Of a DNA stretch of 5,929 bases, positions 1 to 5,929 are shown piece by piece. How positions within the stretch are numbered: the first letter of the stretch is position 1; every line of letters starts with the position of its first letter. The stretch is from a virus. The notes under the pieces are model-generated. The model searched no databases. It had not been told where the DNA came from and saw only the letters and a list, made by a program, of their open reading frames with translations. The stretch is taken from IMG/VR virus record IMGVR_UViG_3300045988_012347, positions 1-5,929 of that record, one strand, 5' to 3'. A program made the translations under genes and the position numbers.

Positions 1-119
1 ATGTTTTTCGTCCGCTTTGCAGTCTGCGTGAAACGTCGCTGGTCGCCACGGCCTGCGCCGCTACGATGTGCCATTGTGTCACCTCCTTTTATCCTTTGTC
101 TGCATTGTATCAAAAAAAC
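1..119. repeat. Terminal direct repeat, left copy (circular-genome assembly overlap)
   Basis: Nt 1-119 match nt 5811-5929 base for base, implying a circular unit of 5810 nt. On the minus strand this copy carries the first 74 nt (1-74) of the small basic ORF whose complete copy is at 5768-5884. It also carries that ORF's SD and the -10 box of promoter P1. Confidence 0.95.
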
Positions 120-132
120 TCCCGGCTGTCAA
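104..132 (-). promoter_or_regulatory. Sigma70/SigA-type promoter P1 for the main (structural/lysis) operon
   Basis: The minus strand reads TTGACA (127-132), a 17-nt spacer, TGa (110-112) and TACAAT (104-109). That is a perfect -35, optimal spacing, an extended -10 TG and a 5/6 -10. It lies about 20 nt upstream of the AAAGGAGGTGA SD and the ATG (74, equivalent to 5884) of the basic ORF. Confidence 0.7.
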
Positions 133-140
133 CCGGGAGT
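112..140 (-). terminator. Rho-independent terminator ending the 60-aa ORF cassette and the genome-length transcript
   Basis: Minus strand: ACTCCCGG-TTGACAG-CCGGGAGT, a perfect 8-bp GC-rich stem (118-125/133-140) with a 7-nt loop. It runs straight into seven T residues (the last stem T plus 112-117). It sits 11 nt downstream of the TAA stop at 151-153. Confidence 0.85.
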
Positions 141-150
141 TTGCTTTTGT

Positions 151-333
151 TTACGCGAAAATTTCCGTTTTGTCGATTCTGTGCAGCTCTACAGAATCGA
201 TGCCTCTCAAGTTTGCAAGCTTACTGCAAAAGTCTCTTGCTTCTTTGGTTTTTAAGCATCTGATTTCATATGTGCTTGTGCAGTCATCATGTTTTGTGAT
301 GACGAGGAACTTGTATTTCTTTTGTTCTGCCAT
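151..333 (-). CDS. Hypothetical 60-aa protein (orphan accessory gene with its own promoter and terminator)
   Basis: Track ORF 151-342 begins at a GTG inside the SD. The real start is most likely ATG 333-331, preceded by AAAGGAAGGTGA with a spacer of about 5-7 nt. Product: MAEQKKYKFLVITKHDDCTSTYEIRCLKTKEARDFCSKLANLRGIDSVELHRIDKTEIFA. It has no recognisable motif and no TM segment. It is flanked by promoter P2 and a strong terminator. Confidence 0.7.
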   Translation of the reverse strand: MAEQKKYKFLVITKHDDCTSTYEIRCLKTKEARDFCSKLANLRGIDSVELHRIDKTEIFA

Positions 334-360
334 TTCTATCACCTTCCTTTTTGTGATTAT

Positions 361-389
361 ATTCTACCATTTTTCATTGAAAAAGTCAA
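361..389 (-). promoter_or_regulatory. Sigma70/SigA-type promoter P2 driving the 60-aa ORF
   Basis: The minus strand reads TTGACT (384-389), a 17-nt spacer, TGg (367-369) and TAGAAT (361-366). An A/T-rich UP-like tract (390-420) lies upstream. The SD starts about 11 nt and the ATG about 28 nt downstream of the -10. Confidence 0.75.
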
Positions 390-429
390 TGTTTTTTTGA
401 AAAAAGTTTAAATAAATCTTGCATTGATG

Positions 430-471
430 GCCGTCCGTTCGGCTCTGGTGAGCCGACGAAGAGAGGACGGC
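430..471 (-). other. Long imperfect hairpin immediately downstream of the VP4 stop codon
   Basis: The outer stem GCCGTCC (430-436)/GGACGGC (465-471) has 7 bp. The inner stem CGTTCGGCTC (437-445)/GAGCCGACG (450-458) has 9 bp with a TGGT loop. There is a 6-nt asymmetric bulge at 459-464. The hairpin begins 13 nt after the TAG at 484-486. No adjacent T-run follows on the minus strand, so this is not a canonical terminator. Confidence 0.5.
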
Positions 472-483
472 GCGACGTTTAGG

Positions 484-1488
484 CTAGATTCCGGTCCGTT
501 CCTTTATTGGCTCACGCCATTTTTGTTTCTGCTTGTCTTTCTCCTTCTGGATTTCGAGGTATGTCGAGTACAATACACTCGTGTTTTGCTCAAGGTTTAC
601 GAGACTTAGCACCGCGTTTCTCCTTCTTTTGGCTCTTACCTCTCTCAGCTCGTCAGAATGGGCCTTGAAATAGCTTTCAGCGTCTTGGTTGGTATCCTTA
701 TCGAGTAGCTTGTCAAAGTACCTCGGTGGCTTTTTCTGCCGCCCTCCAGCGCACGTTATGTTATCGGTTTCAAGTATTTCGTTCATGTGCTCTTTAAGGT
801 ACTTCTCCCCGATGCCTTTTGACATGATTCTAAACTCTGGTTCTCTGCCTTGCATCCAGTATTTTGCATTCTGCTCTGCGCCGATGGCTTTCTTGTTGAC
901 GTACTGCGCTACATACGCGTATGAACCCGGTGCTGCTGGTGAGAAGTCTACAAAGCCTTTTCCCCAGAGGTTTGTTAGCCACTCGCTCTTGAAGTACGAG
1001 TTGCCTTTCTGGTTTTTGTACCACTGTCCATCCTCCGGCTTTAATCCAAAGAAAATTCCGTGATAGTGCGGTCGCTTTGTCCTGTCTCCGTATTCGCCCG
1101 CAATAAAGTACTTTATCGGCTTCTTGTATGCCTTTCTTAGACGTTTTAGAAATAGCTGTACGTCTCTTTTACTTACTGTCTGAGATTGTATACTCTGGTA
1201 GCCTTTTATGATTTCTCCATAAGGTACGTTTTCTTCGTCATAGGTCATCGTTACAAAAATCACGTCTTCCCAGTCTTTTGCTTCAAGCTCGATTCTCGTT
1301 GCCCACTGGTCGGCCATTTGTTTTCTGCAATACTCACACTGCCCACAAGGTAATAACGCGAGGCTTCCTTTTTTGACGCCGTCCATGATGGTTATTTCCA
1401 TGCCCTGCTTCTTTAGGTTTCTTAAACTTCCCCACATTCGCGGCTTGTTCAAGTTCATCTGAAAAACATTCGGATTTGTACATGGCAT
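484..1488 (-). CDS. VP4: Rolling-circle replication initiator protein (Microviridae VP4 / gpA-like HUH endonuclease)
   Basis: 334 aa. The N-terminus MPCTNP is typical of gokushovirus VP4. A CxxCxxC cluster (PCGQCEYCR) is present. RCR motif 1 is FVTMTYD. The HUH motif is PHYHGIFFG (H codons at 1066-1068 and 1060-1062). The double-tyrosine motif AYVAQYVNKK (Y codons at 913-915 and 901-903) is nearly identical to the phiX174 gpA active-site segment YVAKYVNKK. Confidence 0.93.
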   Translation of the reverse strand: MPCTNPNVFQMNLNKPRMWGSLRNLKKQGMEITIMDGVKKGSLALLPCGQCEYCRKQMADQWATRIELEAKDWEDVIFVTMTYDEENVPYGEIIKGYQSIQSQTVSKRDVQLFLKRLRKAYKKPIKYFIAGEYGDRTKRPHYHGIFFGLKPEDGQWYKNQKGNSYFKSEWLTNLWGKGFVDFSPAAPGSYAYVAQYVNKKAIGAEQNAKYWMQGREPEFRIMSKGIGEKYLKEHMNEILETDNITCAGGRQKKPPRYFDKLLDKDTNQDAESYFKAHSDELREVRAKRRRNAVLSLVNLEQNTSVLYSTYLEIQKEKDKQKQKWREPIKERTGI

Positions 1489-1540
1489 ATTATCTGGCCC
1501 AAGCTTACTTGTCTATCTTGGGCCAGTTGACACCTCCTTT
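1489..1540 (-). promoter_or_regulatory. VP4 translation-initiation region: strong SD separated from the AUG by a perfect 10-bp hairpin
   Basis: Minus strand: AAAGGAGGTG (1531-1540) TCAA [CTGGCCCAAG-13 nt loop-CTTGGGCCAG] (1494-1526) ATAAT ATG (1488). The linear SD-AUG distance is 42 nt, or 9 nt if the helix is closed. An in-frame TAG inside the loop rules out an upstream start. Confidence 0.6.
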
Positions 1541-1550
1541 CACTCTAAGT

Positions 1551-1738
1551 TGCGTGTGCGTGCGTGTTTCACGCGCGCGCGCGCAGATGCTGTTTACCTT
1601 AGCTTCGTCTCCCCAGCGACAGCCCCCGCGCTAGGGGGCGCCGTCGCAAGGGGGCCGCAAACTTGTTTTGCGGCCCCTGTTTCTACAGAGCTTTTTTGTT
1701 CTGATACTCTTCTTTTGGTTCCCCTGTGCTGGGGAACC
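1551..1738. other. GC-rich cluster of four stable hairpins in the large noncoding region (candidate ssDNA origin, packaging element or structured RNA)
   Basis: H1 (1551-1585) pairs two alternating Pu/Py tracts, (TG/CG)n and (CG)6, into 16 pairs including 3 T.G, with a TTT loop. H2 (1616-1647) is GCGAC..GCCCCC-GCGCTA-GGGGGC..GTCGC. H3 (1651-1677) is GGGGCCGCAAA/TTTGCGGCCCC, 11 bp with a 5-nt loop. H4 (1717-1738) is GGTTCCCC/GGGGAACC, 8 bp with a 6-nt loop. A 9-mer ACCTTAGCT is repeated at 1596-1604 and 1736-1744. No ORF with an SD is present. Confidence 0.6.
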
Positions 1739-1815
1739 TTAGCTCTGCGCGGAAGGGTTTTGTTTTGCTCTACTTGCTTTATTATATAACTTGTTGTAGT
1801 CGTAGTAGTAGTAGC

Positions 1816-1980
1816 GTGGAAACTGTTGAAAACACTAAATTATAGCGTTGATACGCATAATTATCGCCCCTTTTTCTGTTGAAAGTTTTGTTGAAAACTT
1901 GTTTAAATGTTGAAAACTTGTTTTTGTCTTCAACTATGGTTGTTTTTCCTGTTGAAAACTCTGTGGAGAATGTTGAAAAC
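1816..1980. repeat. Iteron-like array of the 10-mer TGTTGAAAAC
   Basis: Perfect copies lie at 1824-1833, 1889-1898, 1908-1917, 1950-1959 and 1971-1980. A variant TGTTGAAAGT lies at 1877-1886. An inverted 8/9 copy (GTCTTCAAC) lies at 1926-1934. Two copies extend to an identical 16-mer TGTTGAAAACTTGTTT (1889-1904, 1908-1923). The outermost copies extend to GTGGA-N3-TGTTGAAAAC (1816-1833, 1963-1980). The array is AT-rich, noncoding and sits between the VP2 stop and the GC-rich hairpins. Confidence 0.85.
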
Positions 1981-2000
1981 TGAAGTTTTCCACAATTTGT

Positions 2001-2846
2001 TTAATTGCCTGTGTAGCCTCTCATTGGGCTTGTGTTCGGCATCAGCGGAACATTTTTCAGGTGGTCGCTCCACTTTCTTGCTCCTTCGTCAACCGTTTTT
2101 CTCACGTTGTTGCCTATTTCTTTGCCTGTGTCTAGGAGTTTGTCTCCGAGTTCGTTGGCCATATAGCTATAGTCTGCCACTTGTTTTGCGCTTGACTGTG
2201 CAAGGCTGCTTGCGGCTTCTTTCCAGCTCTTTGCCGAGTGGTATTGCTTCGCGCTCGTGGCTTTCTTTGCCAGCTCTAAATACCGGTTTGCTAGCTCTGC
2301 CGTGTTGTTGCCATACTCGTACATTGCTGAGACAGACGCTGCTTGTGCGCTCTGCTGGTTATATCTCTGTGTTCCGATACTTGCTGATGCTCCTGACGGT
2401 GTTGCTGTTGCTCCGTTGTTTGCCGCCAGAATTGGATTTATGCCGGCTGCTATCATGTCTTTTACGGTGTCTTGATACGCTGTGCCTCGCATTTCCTTTT
2501 CAAAGGCTCTCTCTGCCGCTGCTTCGGCGCTGTTGTACTTTTTTGCGCTTGCTTGGCTTCCCGCGTTCATGATGTTACTGAGCATCGACGACATAAAGCT
2601 CATCATGTTCGCATTGGTTACGCTTCCCTGATTGCTGTACGTTCCGAAGCCCGTCGGCGTTCCGATTTGCGTAGAACCGATTTGCTGCGGAGCCGTCAGA
2701 CTGCCTGTGGTTGTCTCGTTTCCGTCGTTGTACTCTTGTCCGCCTCTGTCTGTTTTCGTTGCGCTGGAACTGTTTGAATTTGTGATGACATTGCTTAACA
2801 GGCTAAGTCCCTGCATCACAAAAGGCATCCATGATAAAAGACTCAT
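2001..2846 (-). CDS. VP2: Minor capsid / DNA pilot protein (Microviridae VP2)
   Basis: 281 aa. It has a hydrophobic N-terminus, and the rest is Ala/Ser/Gln/Asn/Gly/Thr-rich and low in complexity. It contains the conserved gokushovirus VP2 segment AYQDTVKDMIAAGINPILA (the AG-[LI]-NP-x-L motif). Its position directly after VP1 fits the family gene order. The start is ATG 2846-2844. The SD AAGGAG (2877-2882) lies upstream of the intervening hairpin. Confidence 0.8.
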   Translation of the reverse strand: MSLLSWMPFVMQGLSLLSNVITNSNSSSATKTDRGGQEYNDGNETTTGSLTAPQQIGSTQIGTPTGFGTYSNQGSVTNANMMSFMSSMLSNIMNAGSQASAKKYNSAEAAAERAFEKEMRGTAYQDTVKDMIAAGINPILAANNGATATPSGASASIGTQRYNQQSAQAASVSAMYEYGNNTAELANRYLELAKKATSAKQYHSAKSWKEAASSLAQSSAKQVADYSYMANELGDKLLDTGKEIGNNVRKTVDEGARKWSDHLKNVPLMPNTSPMRGYTGN

Positions 2847-2874
2847 TCAAAAATAGCCGGGACTTTGCCCGGCT
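2847..2874 (-). terminator. Intrinsic terminator/attenuator between VP1 and VP2
   Basis: Minus strand: AGCCGGG-CAAAGT-CCCGGCT, a perfect 7-bp stem (2855-2861/2868-2874) with a 6-nt loop, followed by ATTTTTGA (2847-2854) and then the VP2 ATG. It lies 10 nt after the VP1 TAA stop. Confidence 0.7.
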
Positions 2875-2884
2875 TTCTCCTTTC

Positions 2885-4543
2885 TTAAATTCTTTCGATT
2901 CCCGGAATGCTGTAGATGGGCATTTCCCGGAACCATGTTTCGTTGTACCAGAAGTCACAAAGGAACTGGTGCGCCTTTGCGCTTGTTACCGCAATCGTGC
3001 GGTCAATGTTTTCGCGTCCTTCCTGAATCCACTCCGCCGACAGTGTCGGCAGAGTGTCGTAATCGTCCGCATAGTGCCATGCATCCAGAGACTTTTTGTA
3101 GTTTGAACGCATTTCGCCGGTCACATAGGAAGGTTTGTACCTGTAGTCGGCCCAGCACTCCTGATACCCGAAGATTTCGTCATCTTTTTCCGTACCCTGT
3201 GCGAAGATTTCGCGGTTATATACCGGCTGTTCTCCGAGTGCCGCTAGCCGCGGGTCGTAGTATGTGAATCTTCCTTTTCGCGTCCATTTGGTTGTGAGTC
3301 CCTGCTGGTAGCTGTGCTCCACTCGTACCACTGCCAGACCGATGATATACCCGTACTCAGTTGCCGCGTAGTCCACCATCTGTTTGCTACAGGTCGTCAG
3401 ACTGTATGCCGCCGTGTTGCCCAGTGCCTGACCGGTCTGTTCGTCCGTCTGGCTTGTCTGGATGACCTGATTGACATTGATAGCGATTCTCTGCCCGCCG
3501 ATGTACTCCGGGATTTGCAGGCGGCTGTCCGGGCTTGTCACTCCCCATGTGCCGGAAAGGAACTCGCGGTAGCGCGTGCCATTTCTGGCATCGGCCTCGA
3601 AGATGTGTTGCAATGCGATGGCCTGTCTCAGGTCGTTGATGGTTATTGCGGTTACGCTGCTGAGGTCTGCCCCCAGGTATGCCGATGCTGAGTTTGTGTC
3701 GTCATTTTCATCTTTTCCAGATACCAGTGTGACACTGTTTTTGTAGTCTTCTCCGTTGTTTCCGCTGTTGTACATCGTCGGGTTGCTGTAATTGGTACTG
3801 ATAAGTTCTATTGTTTGTTTGAACTCTTGGGTTAAGTTTCTGTCGTCGTACATCTTTACTTTTGCAGGGCCGCCCAGCGGCAGGCTGATTTCCTCTGCAT
3901 TTTTCAACGGCGAAGGTAGGCAGGATGTGAAGTAGTCGTGGAACTTACCAGCTCTTGCCGGTTTCATCGCGTACAGCGTTGCTTCGTTGGTGTTGGTCGT
4001 CTTGTCGATGGCGTTTGCGCTTGACGTCTCTTTGCTGGCGTCTGCGTTCGTGCCGCTGTCATCCGACTTTTTGTAGCCCAGCATTAACGGCGCTTCGAGG
4101 TTTTCATCTCGAAACCACTCGTTGTAAATCATCGCATAGGCCCGCGCCGGGAGTGCGTTTACCTTCAGTGCGTTGGTCACTTCGGTCGGCAATCCGAAAT
4201 AGTCGCCAATACTGCCGTTTGCGAGTCCGCTTGTGCCGCCGATTGTGCAGGTTGGAGTGGAATACTCCGTCTTTTCTGCCCAGTAATCGGTGTTGTTCTC
4301 GCCGAACATATTTTCAAAGTGTTCCCACAAGAGACGTGACGGTACAAAGAAAAAGTATGTGTCCATGTAGCAGTTATCCATGATGGGATAGATAGGCGTA
4401 CTCATACGGATAAGGCCGTTCAGCTGTACTCTCGCGGTATCACCCGGGAGCACTTCGTCCATATAGATAGGCACCAACTCGCCTTCGTTGATGGTCGTCA
4501 ACAGCTGGTGTCCTCGGTCAAATTTAGACCGTGGTCTCTGCAT
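2885..4543 (-). CDS. VP1: Major capsid protein (Microviridae VP1 / F-like)
   Basis: 552 aa and the largest ORF. The N-terminal segment SKFDRGHQLLTTINEGELVPIYMDEVLPGDT matches the conserved Microviridae capsid N-terminus (F-D-x-S/G-H..T...G.L.P....EVLPGDT). Length is typical for gokushovirus-like VP1. Confidence 0.95.
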   Translation of the reverse strand: MQRPRSKFDRGHQLLTTINEGELVPIYMDEVLPGDTARVQLNGLIRMSTPIYPIMDNCYMDTYFFFVPSRLLWEHFENMFGENNTDYWAEKTEYSTPTCTIGGTSGLANGSIGDYFGLPTEVTNALKVNALPARAYAMIYNEWFRDENLEAPLMLGYKKSDDSGTNADASKETSSANAIDKTTNTNEATLYAMKPARAGKFHDYFTSCLPSPLKNAEEISLPLGGPAKVKMYDDRNLTQEFKQTIELISTNYSNPTMYNSGNNGEDYKNSVTLVSGKDENDDTNSASAYLGADLSSVTAITINDLRQAIALQHIFEADARNGTRYREFLSGTWGVTSPDSRLQIPEYIGGQRIAINVNQVIQTSQTDEQTGQALGNTAAYSLTTCSKQMVDYAATEYGYIIGLAVVRVEHSYQQGLTTKWTRKGRFTYYDPRLAALGEQPVYNREIFAQGTEKDDEIFGYQECWADYRYKPSYVTGEMRSNYKKSLDAWHYADDYDTLPTLSAEWIQEGRENIDRTIAVTSAKAHQFLCDFWYNETWFREMPIYSIPGIERI

Positions 4544-4568
4544 TCGCGGTACTTGCGCGAAGTGCGAT

Positions 4569-4982
4569 TCACTGTTCCGGTTTATTGTCGTTCACCTCTT
4601 CCTTTTTTTCCTCCTGCTTCGGCGGTTCGGTCTTCTGCTCCTTCTTCAGCTGTTCCAGCGTTTCCGCTGCCGCCTGTGCTTTCTCGTGCATTGTTACCAC
4701 GTCCTTAGGCAGGTTTTCCAACGGCGTCCCCTCGGTGTATACCATGCTCTTTGCCTTGATGCTTATATCGCCAGCTTCCAGCCGTGCGATTGCGCTTGCG
4801 AGGTCGTAGCCCTCACCGGCCCGCTGGATTTTCTCGTATACGTTCTCGGGCGGCTGTTCGATGTACTCGGTTGTGCCGTTCGCCCGCTTCACTGCTTTCC
4901 ACGTCGGTGCCATTTCTGAGCCTGCCTTGTTCGGCACTCTCTCGGTCGGCATCCCGAAGAACTTTACGTTAGGATTTGTCAT
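4569..4982 (-). CDS. VP3: Internal scaffolding protein (Microviridae VP3-like)
   Basis: The track ORF starts at TTG 4988. ATG 4982-4980 is preceded by AAAGGAG with a 7-nt spacer, giving 137 aa (MTNPNVKFF...). The segment NVYEKIQRAGEGYDLASAIARLEAGDISI resembles the gokushovirus VP3 core (Y-E-x-IQ...D-[IL]..I..R...GD). The C-terminal tail is charged. The position immediately upstream of VP1 fits the family order. Confidence 0.7.
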   Translation of the reverse strand: MTNPNVKFFGMPTERVPNKAGSEMAPTWKAVKRANGTTEYIEQPPENVYEKIQRAGEGYDLASAIARLEAGDISIKAKSMVYTEGTPLENLPKDVVTMHEKAQAAAETLEQLKKEQKTEPPKQEEKKEEVNDNKPEQ

Positions 4983-5226
4983 TTCCAAACTCCTTTTTCA
5001 GGTCAACCAGTTTGCACAGCTGTTTCGGCTCTGCCCCGTACATCTCGCCGGTTTCGCTGTTGAACTCGCCCAGCTCTACGAGGCTGATGTCTTCGATTTC
5101 CTGCAACGTGCCTTCGTCTGCCTTCCACTTTGCCGTGCGGATTGCCTGCGCCCGGTTCTGCTGAAGGAACGGATTGCTGTAGCCATTGGTCACGCTGTCA
5201 TGAAAACTGTAAAACGTGTATTTCAT
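4969..5226 (-). CDS. Conserved small Microviridae nonstructural protein (ORF5-like family; function unknown)
   Basis: The track ORF starts at GTG 5235 inside the SD. ATG 5226-5224 follows AAGGTGGA with a 5-nt spacer, giving 85 aa (MKYTFYSFHDSVTNGYSNPFLQQNRAQAIRTAK...ISLVELGEFNSETGEMYG). The pattern [FY]S-x-xD-S/K...PF.....A.R.F ... L.ELGEFD..TGE matches, from memory, a family common in gokushovirus-type genomes. It forms an ATGA start/stop overlap with the peptidase gene and a 14-nt overlap with VP3. Confidence 0.65.
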   Translation of the reverse strand: MKYTFYSFHDSVTNGYSNPFLQQNRAQAIRTAKWKADEGTLQEIEDISLVELGEFNSETGEMYGAEPKQLCKLVDLKKEFGNDKS

Positions 5227-5615
5227 TTTTTCCACCTTGCCTTTTTTTCTCGTGTGTCGATATGTGTAAAGGTCCAGTAGCTCCCGATGCCGTATTTGTT
5301 CTGGTATTTATTTTTCAGGTACTGTTGCACCTTACTCGCCGGAACTCCTTTTACTCGAATATCTGCCGCCGTGCCTTTTGTGTGCTGTGAGTTTTTCACA
5401 CCGCCGATTTTCGCGTTGTATTCCGGTGTCCTGTAGCCACTGGTGATTATTACAGGTGTGTTAAAGTGTTCTCTTACATCTTCCAGCACTTTTACCAGCT
5501 CTGTGTCGATGAGGATTTTGTCACACCTGCCGTCTTTTTGTGCAAATTCTTTGATTCTGAAGTGTGTGCTCACTCGTTGGGCGCCCTGATGAAATAGGCT
5601 GTATTCATTTAGCAC
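5223..5615 (-). CDS. Zinc D-Ala-D-Ala carboxypeptidase-fold cell-wall hydrolase (Peptidase_M15 family, putative endolysin)
   Basis: 130 aa. The start is GTG 5615-5613, with the SD GAGGA 6 nt upstream. Motifs are STHFRIKEF, ITSGYRTPEYN, SQHTKGTAADI (H78 codon 5382-5384, D85 codon 5361-5363) and FTHIDTR (H118 codon 5262-5264). This is the H-x6-D...H zinc triad and the SGYR/SxHxxGxAxD signature of the M15 (VanX/Peptidase_M15_3-like) fold. No signal peptide or TM segment is present. Confidence 0.88.
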   Translation of the reverse strand: MLNEYSLFHQGAQRVSTHFRIKEFAQKDGRCDKILIDTELVKVLEDVREHFNTPVIITSGYRTPEYNAKIGGVKNSQHTKGTAADIRVKGVPASKVQQYLKNKYQNKYGIGSYWTFTHIDTREKKARWKK

Positions 5616-5733
5616 TGTTTTCCTCGCTTTCGTCGTTGTCTGCGTCCTCTGCGTCCTTCACGACTGCATGATAGATTTTATCTACCATCTCCAGAATTTT
5701 CAGCAGAGTGTTCATGGTTTCCTTAAAGTCCAT
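5605..5733 (-). CDS. Hypothetical 42-aa acidic protein
   Basis: The track ORF 5605-5892 (95 aa) starts at a GTG in another gene's SD and runs across the basic ORF in a different frame. The internal ATG 5733-5731 has a strong SD (GAAGGAAGGTGA, about 5-nt spacer). Product: MDFKETMNTLLKILEMVDKIYHAVVKDAEDADNDESEENSAK, a predicted helix followed by an acidic tail. Its stop overlaps the peptidase start by 11 nt. Confidence 0.55.
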   Translation of the reverse strand: MDFKETMNTLLKILEMVDKIYHAVVKDAEDADNDESEENSAK

Positions 5734-5767
5734 TGTGTCACCTTCCTTCTTTGTTCCATGTGGAACA

Positions 5768-5884
5768 TTACAGCCGGATGCCGCCCCGGCTGACCTTCGG
5801 TCGGACGTTGATGTTTTTCGTCCGCTTTGCAGTCTGCGTGAAACGTCGCTGGTCGCCACGGCCTGCGCCGCTACGATGTGCCAT
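5768..5884 (-). CDS. 38-aa highly basic protein, putative DNA-binding/packaging protein (phiX174 J / gokushovirus ORF8 analogue)
   Basis: This ORF is not in the track because it is too short. ATG 5884-5882 is preceded by AAAGGAGGTGA with a 5-nt spacer, and the TAA stop is at 5770-5768. Product: MAHRSGAGRGDQRRFTQTAKRTKNINVRPKVSRGGIRL, with 8 R, 3 K and 1 D. It is the first gene after promoter P1. Its 5' part is duplicated at 1-74 by the terminal overlap. Confidence 0.7.
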   Translation of the reverse strand: MAHRSGAGRGDQRRFTQTAKRTKNINVRPKVSRGGIRL

Positions 5885-5929
5885 TGTGTCACCTCCTTTT
5901 ATCCTTTGTCTGCATTGTATCAAAAAAAC
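5811..5929. repeat. Terminal direct repeat, right copy (circular-genome assembly overlap)
   Basis: Identical to nt 1-119. Confidence 0.95.

Follow-up and report, generated by a model that had tools for sequence, protein, structure and literature searches.

The Gokushovirinae are the most abundant group of phages with single-stranded DNA (ssDNA) in gut and environmental viromes, and the Microviridae as a family are defined as positive-sense. We know of no replication origin defined so far for Gokushovirinae in the literature searched. In bacteriophage T4, genes 38 and 25 have discontinuous ribosome-binding sites (RBSs). The record of phiX174 places rep_origin at position 4306, directly after CAACTTG, and the site reads CAACTTG↓ATATTAATAACACTATAGACCAC (arrows mark the nick here and below). 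The double-strand origin (dso) of phiX174 has been reviewed as a bind site plus a nick site (PMC5714925). Conserved hairpins are also found in the Cap-Rep intergenic regions of reekeekee- and roodoodooviruses, where a role in negative-strand initiation was discussed (PMC9865509). Here we analyze a perfect hairpin located between the Shine-Dalgarno sequence (SD) and the start codon of VP4, the gene for the HUH rolling-circle initiator (Rep), in a 5,929-nt stretch of viral DNA, positions 1 to 5,929 of IMG/VR record IMGVR_UViG_3300045988_012347 (hereafter, the window). The original prediction treated this hairpin as part of a split RBS and offered a DNA-level Rep site as an alternative. Comparison with relatives shows that a conserved cis element of gokushoviruses, mostly present once per genome, is built around this hairpin. 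The likeliest role of the element, and in our view a probable one, is that of the double-strand (leading-strand) origin recognized by VP4.

Read on the strand carrying CTTG, the element runs as a stem arm, the loop (T)TACTTGAT(A), the second stem arm and TGACAC (Table 1). A covariance model, R1, built from the family alignment A3 of 36 distinct elements, has a single match in the window (48.2 bits, E = 1.8e-9). CTTG is invariant in all 36 aligned elements as well as in all 66 distinct elements. The following base is mostly A, with T found in the clade of the window, in the relatives labelled L057, L059 and L123, and in SpV4. In the same 66 elements TGACAC ends 22 nt (32 elements), 23 nt (33) or 24 nt (one) past CTTG, and this spacing is fixed despite two- to three-fold variation in the lengths of stems (7–18 bp) and loops (5–18 nt). 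The hairpin follows 80 of 211 GTGTCA sites (TGACAC on the opposite strand), versus 0–7 sites for each control hexamer. In one sub-clade (L064, L066, L070, L072-L074, L080, L081, L083) the flank is duplicated (GTGTCATGGTGTCA), with two overlapping copies of GTGTCA preceding the hairpin.

Compensatory double changes are present at all 11 pairs shared in the 36-element alignment: 81 cells are affected, versus 32 ± 6 in shuffled alignments, and none of 500 shuffles reaches 81. Pairing in the family alignment is 80% in register and 28–43% when slid; the corresponding values in alignment A2, which comprises 12 sequences including L057 (51%), are 94% and 19–43%. Among about 50 close relatives with VP4 at 80–95% identity, the hairpin region falls into three sequence types. 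Here, position 2 of the stem is T-A or C-G and position 6 is C-G, G-C or A-T, making two fully compensatory positions, while GAGGTGTCAA and the loop ATAGACAAG are unchanging across the three types. Between types, no relation is seen in the sequence upstream of the SD or in the spacer that leads to the ATG (ATAAT, ACCT or TAACAAAA). Thus, the covariation check proposed in the original prediction shows a helix kept through compensatory changes, and the invariant loop and flank around this covarying stem identify a sequence-specific stem-loop rather than a mere spacer.

To follow the element beyond close relatives, we scanned 87 related gokushovirus genomes for GTGTCA followed by a hairpin with CAAG in the loop. 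Of these, 79 carry the element, each at a single locus. Among 79 further, independent loci taken from bacterial assemblies, R1 detects it in 52, with one match each. GTGTCA lies on the coding strand in 53 genomes of the scan and on the other strand in 26. Elements of the first class adjoin VP4, either 0–8 nt after its stop codon (L058, L061, L063-L106) or just before its start (the clade of the window, L057, L059). Elements of the second class are usually located 100–300 nt upstream of VP4, and in L107-L141 and Chp2 they occupy an upstream intergenic region; the element of SpV4 is likewise intergenic and on the other strand. The settings differ as well. In L057, whose VP4 is 51% identical, the hairpin is kept and is followed by a normal SD, AAAGGGGA; the upstream GGTGTC forms an arm of another small hairpin. 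L059 (39%) has GGTGTCA, then an 18-bp hairpin and then a proximal SD. In L058 and L061 (35–39%), VP2 abuts VP4, which has an ordinary SD, and the element (GGTGTCA, a 10–11-bp stem and the loop TATCAAGTAA) starts immediately past the stop codon of VP4, in about 500 nt that are free of genes. Cultured phages also carry it: on the coding strand of Chp2 we find a 14-bp stem with the loop TCTACTTGAT and the flank GTGATAGC, and SpV4 contains GGGGCATAT-attACTTGttata-ATATGCCCC-at-TGACGAC, a weak match to R1 (23.5 bits, E = 1.4e-3). The IMG/VR contig L139 (7989 nt) has two copies (2141-2189 and 6194-6242), about 4050 nt apart and with duplicated flanking open reading frames (ORFs); it looks like a concatemeric assembly of a genome of about 4 kb rather than a genome with two origins.

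Three sequence-level features of phiX174/pC194-type double-strand origins are found in this element: CTTG is followed by A or T, a separate block with a putative role in Rep binding stands at a fixed distance, and an HUH initiator is combined with one candidate origin per replicon. When the commonest element type is laid over the phiX174 site in register, 14 of the 28 non-anchor positions are identical, a value reached by 0.3% of background CTTG sites. VP4 would nick at CTTG↓A/T presented in the hairpin loop, and TGACAC would give it a second contact. The DNA-level nick or binding site for the HUH Rep, mentioned earlier as an alternative, is the explanation favored by the comparative data, with nicking itself being putative.

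Table 1. Positions of the conserved element and of neighboring features in the window
Feature	Position	Strand	Basis or remark
Whole conserved element, ~46 nt (5′ arm, loop with CTTG, 3′ arm, TGACAC); candidate rolling-circle (double-strand) origin	1490..1535	+ (non-coding)	Covariance model R1
Invariant CTTG; putative Rep nick after G1511 (G1511↓T1512)	1508..1511	+	Invariant A3 column; nick position proposed by analogy with phiX174 CAACTTG↓A
Flank TGACAC (GTGTCA on minus), ending 22 nt past CTTG; candidate 'bind' part for Rep	1528..1533	+	TGA.A invariant
Stem arm CTGGCCCAAG on + strand (3′ arm CTTGGGCCAG on minus strand/mRNA)	1494..1503		Perfect 10-bp inverted repeat
13-nt loop, CTTACTTGTCTAT on + and ATAGACAAGTAAG on minus; holds in-frame TAG	1504..1516		CAAG/CTTG core the same in all 66 distinct elements
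Other stem arm, CTTGGGCCAG on + strand (CTGGCCCAAG on minus, 1526-1517)	1517..1526		
Shine-Dalgarno sequence AAAGGAGGTG	1531..1540	-	Final three bases GTG belong to the conserved GTGTCA flank
5-nt spacer ATAAT, hairpin to ATG	1489..1493	-	Not conserved: ACCT or TAACAAAA in sister clades
VP4/Rep gene (334 aa, HUH rolling-circle initiator)	484..1488	-	Pfam PF23343 REP_ORF2-G2P, E 4e-19; homologues
Remainder of the VP2-VP4 intergenic region (512 nt in total), with GC-rich hairpins (1550-1586, 1622-1655, 1651-1677, 1717-1738), TATAAT-containing stretch, six TTTCAAC repeats (1831-1978)	1541..2000	-	Inverted repeats

The orientation of the element is linked to the base composition of the genome. Four-fold degenerate sites in the packaged strand of phiX174 show the base frequencies T 0.61 > C 0.21 > G 0.11 > A 0.07, and the bases rank identically in the non-coding strand of the window (T 0.36 > C 0.31 > G 0.23 > A 0.10). 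The coding strand of the window thus has an extreme four-fold bias (A 0.36, G 0.31, C 0.23, T 0.10), the mirror of phiX174 and many gokushoviruses. In the first genome set, A far exceeds T on the coding strand of all 54 genomes with CTTG on the non-coding strand (AT4 of +0.61 ± 0.06 over 53 genomes; the 54th is L135, re-scored at +0.75), and genomes with CTTG on the coding strand have a mean AT4 of -0.52, with 23 of 28 values being negative. The second set, from bacterial assemblies, behaves in the same way: AT4 is below zero in 40 of 44 genomes with CTTG on the coding strand and above zero in seven of the eight whose non-coding strand carries it (Mann-Whitney p = 2e-7, without correction for phylogeny). 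Overall, four-fold composition flips with the orientation of the element in about 90% of more than 130 genomes. CTTG is on the non-coding strand in the clade of the window, in a large related gut clade (L058-L106) and in L135, L148, L168, L173, L192, L216 and L224; in a rough neighbor-joining tree of VP1 this orientation appears at no fewer than three separate places, always with strongly positive AT4.

This link agrees with an element that determines which strand is displaced as ssDNA, and suggests, short of proof, that the clade of the window may package the antisense strand. More tentatively, the element may be a gokushovirus rolling-circle origin whose orientation sets the displaced and packaged strand, in which case the subfamily would include negative-sense phages and its polarity would have flipped several times by inversion of a cassette of about 46 nt; we regard this wider scenario as possible, with slightly more speaking against it than for it. 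We found nothing in a literature search that questions the packaged-strand polarity of Microviridae.

Several observations weigh against an origin of this kind. The variant in the window reads ACTTG↓TCT rather than ACTTG↓ATA and agrees with phiX174 at 10 of the 28 positions, as do 13% of background sites. The phiX174 origin itself lies inside gene A, has no hairpin and gives no match to R1, even with the filters off. The same search finds no detectable element in cultured phiMH2K; the coding strand of this phage is A-rich, so composition alone cannot prove polarity. About 10% of genomes (L107, L137, L139, L150, L179 and L213 among them) break the rule linking orientation and composition. The CTTG strand is T-rich at four-fold sites in about 90% of genomes, like the packaged strand of phiX174, and in the window it is the non-coding strand, in conflict with textbook polarity; if Microviridae always package the coding strand, the nick proposed here is on the wrong strand for a leading-strand origin. 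Finally, binding and nicking by VP4 are putative, and the literature searched describes no gokushovirus CTTG hairpin or origin, the older subscription papers on Chp2 and SpV4, which might discuss the hairpin, being outside the search. The string CAACTTGATA is found there in unrelated primer lists only.

Could the hairpin instead serve the synthesis of the second strand? As a complementary-strand (single-strand) origin, it would recruit host primase, RNA polymerase or PriA when present in ssDNA, in the manner of the n′ site of phiX174 or the minus-strand origins of G4 and M13. It is a stable ssDNA hairpin within a hairpin-rich intergenic region, and an element required on the packaged strand would also have an orientation that tracks composition. 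Moreover, the Cap-Rep hairpins of other microvirus clades have tentatively been read in this way (PMC9865509). Nevertheless, one would not expect a host-recognized priming site to remain physically linked to rep, to have a CTTG nick core and a 23-nt geometry in common with the Rep origin of phiX174, or to retain the same motifs across hosts as different as Chlamydia, Spiroplasma and gut Clostridia. We therefore consider this role unlikely. A dif/XerCD-type site and an IS200/IS605-type hairpin were considered as well; no sequence resemblance to dif was seen.

The arrangement at the VP4 start is as originally described. On the minus strand, the order is AAAGGAGGTG (1540-1531), TCAA, CTGGCCCAAG, ATAGACAAGTAAG, CTTGGGCCAG, ATAAT and the ATG (1488-1486). 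The 10-bp stem is 100% complementary and encloses a 13-nt loop, and 33 of the 42 nt between the SD and the ATG are occupied by the hairpin. The distal SD is the only one upstream of VP4, none being present between the hairpin and the ATG. The in-frame TAG in the loop (1515-1513) makes an upstream start of VP4 impossible, and the N-terminus MPCTNP fits the family, in which Cys3 is invariant and Pro6 nearly invariant (20 VP4 homologues). Perfect hairpins of at least 10 bp (loop 3–20 nt) are in about 50-fold excess in the window, with four distinct ones against 0.076 expected under a first-order Markov model. As ssDNA, the hairpin at VP4 has a folding energy of -11.1 kcal/mol (z = -3.4). In the RNA centroid (-18.2 kcal/mol) only this hairpin forms, leaving the SD and AUG unpaired; folding of the 101-nt RNA context is not significant on its own (z = -1.2), and the case thus rests on comparative data. 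A sigma-70-like match over the loop and ATG, TAGACA-17-TAATAT (9/12), was rejected because transcription would start past the ATG and such matches are at chance level in the window.

These properties speak for a split RBS as originally proposed, with a helix that sets or limits Rep translation as in T4 genes 38 and 25: the sole SD is 42 nt upstream, the hairpin would remove 33 of these nucleotides, and SD and AUG stay free in the fold. The compensatory changes preserve the stem, which a DNA-level role explains equally well, and VP2 of the same genome has a similar SD-hairpin-ATG layout. Furthermore, the clade-specific extension of the SD onto GGTG coincides with a missing proximal SD in 18 of 18 contexts. 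However, hairpin, loop motif and flank are kept where they follow the VP4 stop codon, lie on the other strand or precede a normal SD. The element therefore predates the SD-hairpin-AUG arrangement and does not depend on it. In addition, a spacer helix needs neither an invariant loop motif nor an invariant flank, and the unpaired SD-AUG spacing is not conserved, being about 9 nt in two clades and about 12 nt in a third, plus the helix end. Of the features of a discontinuous RBS, an SD that is too distant, without a proximal one, and a stable helix kept by covariation are found, and one defining feature of a dedicated discontinuous RBS is missing, since in relatives the helix occurs independently of this SD-AUG arrangement. 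A helix between SD and AUG, which the original prediction expected in relatives, is conserved in the clade of the window; most other relatives have either no gene following the hairpin or a normal SD after it. Delivery of a distant SD to the AUG and tuning of Rep dosage are not supported as the reason for the presence of the hairpin, as the same hairpin with its GTGTCA flank and CAAG loop occurs in relatives without that arrangement. Translation as the primary function is hence improbable, more so than second-strand synthesis.

The SD itself tells a different story. In the clade of the window, the sequence preceding GTGTCA agrees with an ideal SD, AAAGGAGGTGA, across 6–10 nt (from GAGGTG to AAAGGAGGTG) in all 18 distinct contexts, and in none of these 18 do the 5–12 nt that follow the hairpin contain an SD match. 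In L057 and L059, where a proximal SD is present, only the GGTG of the element itself is left upstream, and in about 47 contexts without a following gene the SD match is GGTG or less (at most 4 nt), apart from one chance 5-nt match, AAAGG. An SD has thus been built onto the element exactly where it is needed, which argues that it is in use and that initiation works across the folded hairpin. We lean, by a small margin of belief, towards this being so, as a secondary consequence of the position of the element. The element has come to sit directly before rep in the clade of the window, and its GGTG has been extended to (AAAG)GAGGTG. The VP4 mRNA hence carries, in order, SD, hairpin and AUG, and initiation probably bridges the folded hairpin, the paired SD and the AUG being separated by the base of the helix and about 9 unpaired nt. 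A hairpin-bridged RBS is thus plausible as a secondary adaptation of this clade, and we infer an inefficient layout that is tolerated, the protein being required at low levels, rather than a tuned switch.

The least probable role is that of a transcription or RNA signal, either an intrinsic terminator or stabilizing hairpin at the end of the VP4 message or an operator for Rep self-repression: in many genomes the element begins 0–8 nt past the VP4 stop codon, T-rich sequence follows some copies, and autoregulation could be a second role of an origin placed between the promoter and the start of rep, as in many rolling-circle replicons, but in the window (next bases ATAATATG) and in most clades no T run follows the hairpin, which is thus not terminator-like, a terminator requires neither an invariant loop motif nor a flank at fixed distance and would abolish Rep expression right before the rep start codon, and about one third of genomes have the element on the non-transcribed strand relative to their genes.

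The element, probably the origin, is embedded in an intergenic region with further structure (Table 1), and the 561-nt stretch that spans this region (1440-2000) folds with z = -6.8. Within the GC-rich hairpin cluster at 1550-1740 are a tract of alternating purines and pyrimidines, GCGCGCGCGCGTGAAACACGCACGCACACGC (1550-1586), and an 11-bp hairpin with perfect pairing (1651-1677); this cluster may, for example, act as a complementary-strand origin. CGCGCAC-type tracts like those of the window recur beside the element in L058, L061, L063, L078 and L085. The six TTTCAAC copies (mostly GTTTTCAACA) on the coding strand are accompanied by inverted copies, and all of them lie in the intergenic region between VP2 and VP4, with none elsewhere in the genome. 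L057 (VP4 51% identical) has these repeats too. They also occur in L058 and L061, there reversed along with the remainder of the intergenic module; the orientation of the origin-like hairpin with respect to the genes is unchanged. We considered the repeats as iterons locked to the hairpin; they lie 300–450 nt away, and a fixed unit was rejected because the remaining intergenic module of the L058/L061 clade has the reverse orientation with respect to the element. Possibly, they are binding sites for a regulator.

The window represents a complete gokushovirus genome. Positions 1-119 and 5811-5929 form an exact 119-nt direct repeat (assembly overlap), and since the ends are identical over this length, the genome is a circle of 5810 nt. 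All genes are on the minus strand: a small Arg-rich VP8-like ORF, an M15 peptidase, VP5, VP3, VP1 (Phage_F, E = 4e-147), VP2, the 512-nt intergenic region and VP4/Rep. Deposited relatives are human-gut gokushoviruses with 80–89% identity. An assignment of Bacteroides as the host was rejected as unreliable: bacterial assemblies contain one close relative only, a contig of 5.7 kb binned with a Bacteroides metagenome-assembled genome. VP3, VP5 and VP8 carry strong SDs, which argues for an SD-using host, and these three genes and the M15 peptidase have ordinary SD spacing. VP1, encoding the most abundant protein, is without an SD in the roughly 45 nt before its ATG at 4543 (window 4544-4620, minus strand); the nearest SD-like run, GAAGAGGTG, is about 48 nt upstream, within the end of VP3, with weak structure in between. 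VP2 has a layout like that of VP4 (window 2846-2883, minus strand). Its SD, AAAGGAG (2883-2877), comes directly after the VP1 stop codon and is followed by a 7-bp GC-rich hairpin, AGCCGGG-CAAAGT-CCCGGCT (2874-2855), by ATTTTTGA and by the ATG at 2846. This layout is kept in the clade, without informative variation, and the VP1-VP2 hairpin with its T run resembles an intrinsic terminator or attenuator. Another perfect 10-bp hairpin, at 116-142, is followed by a T run on the coding strand and is thus terminator-like; it overlaps a promoter match close to consensus, TTGACA-17-TACAAT with TG (132-104), which lies immediately upstream of the VP8-like ORF. A further perfect 10-bp hairpin is located at 173-200.

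The element offers a concrete and testable origin candidate for the Gokushovirinae: one per genome, covarying, with a phiX-like nick core and a flank at fixed distance. It would be useful as an annotation landmark and would give thousands of metagenomic microvirus genomes a natural zero coordinate. If its orientation does set the packaged strand, part of the family would be negative-sense, which would bear on taxonomy, on strand-aware virome libraries, on models of mutation bias in ssDNA viruses and on phage-based vectors. Replication and translation signals share bases in the clade of the window, where GTG is common to the SD and the TGACAC flank. This overlap could offer Rep a simple route to sense or regulate its own expression.

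Among known systems, T4 genes 38 and 25 resemble the VP4 leader in that the linear SD-AUG distance is too long and a stable intervening hairpin would shorten the effective distance. By contrast, the hairpin here is a pre-existing DNA element with motifs of its own, and the effective spacing, known from sequence only, is longer and not conserved. The hairpins of reekeekee- and roodoodooviruses are likewise found beside rep in Microviridae, with identical loops, compensatory stem changes and an unproven function, but they belong to other clades and have other sequences, and no phiX nick motif or link to strand composition was reported for them (PMC9865509). In the dso of the plasmids pT181 and pMV158 and in the nonanucleotide stem-loop of CRESS-DNA viruses, a covarying stem also displays an invariant loop motif beside rep, with a neighboring Rep-binding sequence and one copy per replicon. 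The differences are in the Rep lineage, in the loop sequence and in the gokushovirus hairpin having no evident iterons directly beside it. The similarities to phiX174 are the most extensive. Both systems combine a homologous HUH initiator with an ACTTG(A/T) core at the presumed nick and one copy per genome; in phiX174, CAACTTG↓ATA is followed by 23 nt ending in GACCAC, and here TGACAC ends 22–24 nt past CTTG; in both, the strand bearing the site is T-rich at synonymous positions. Unlike in phiX174, the nick motif is placed in the loop of a covarying 7–18-bp stem, in an intergenic region and, in the clade of the window, on the non-coding strand. Judged by these sequence-level features, the element is most likely a rolling-circle double-strand origin of a hairpin-type, phiX-like form for the Gokushovirinae.

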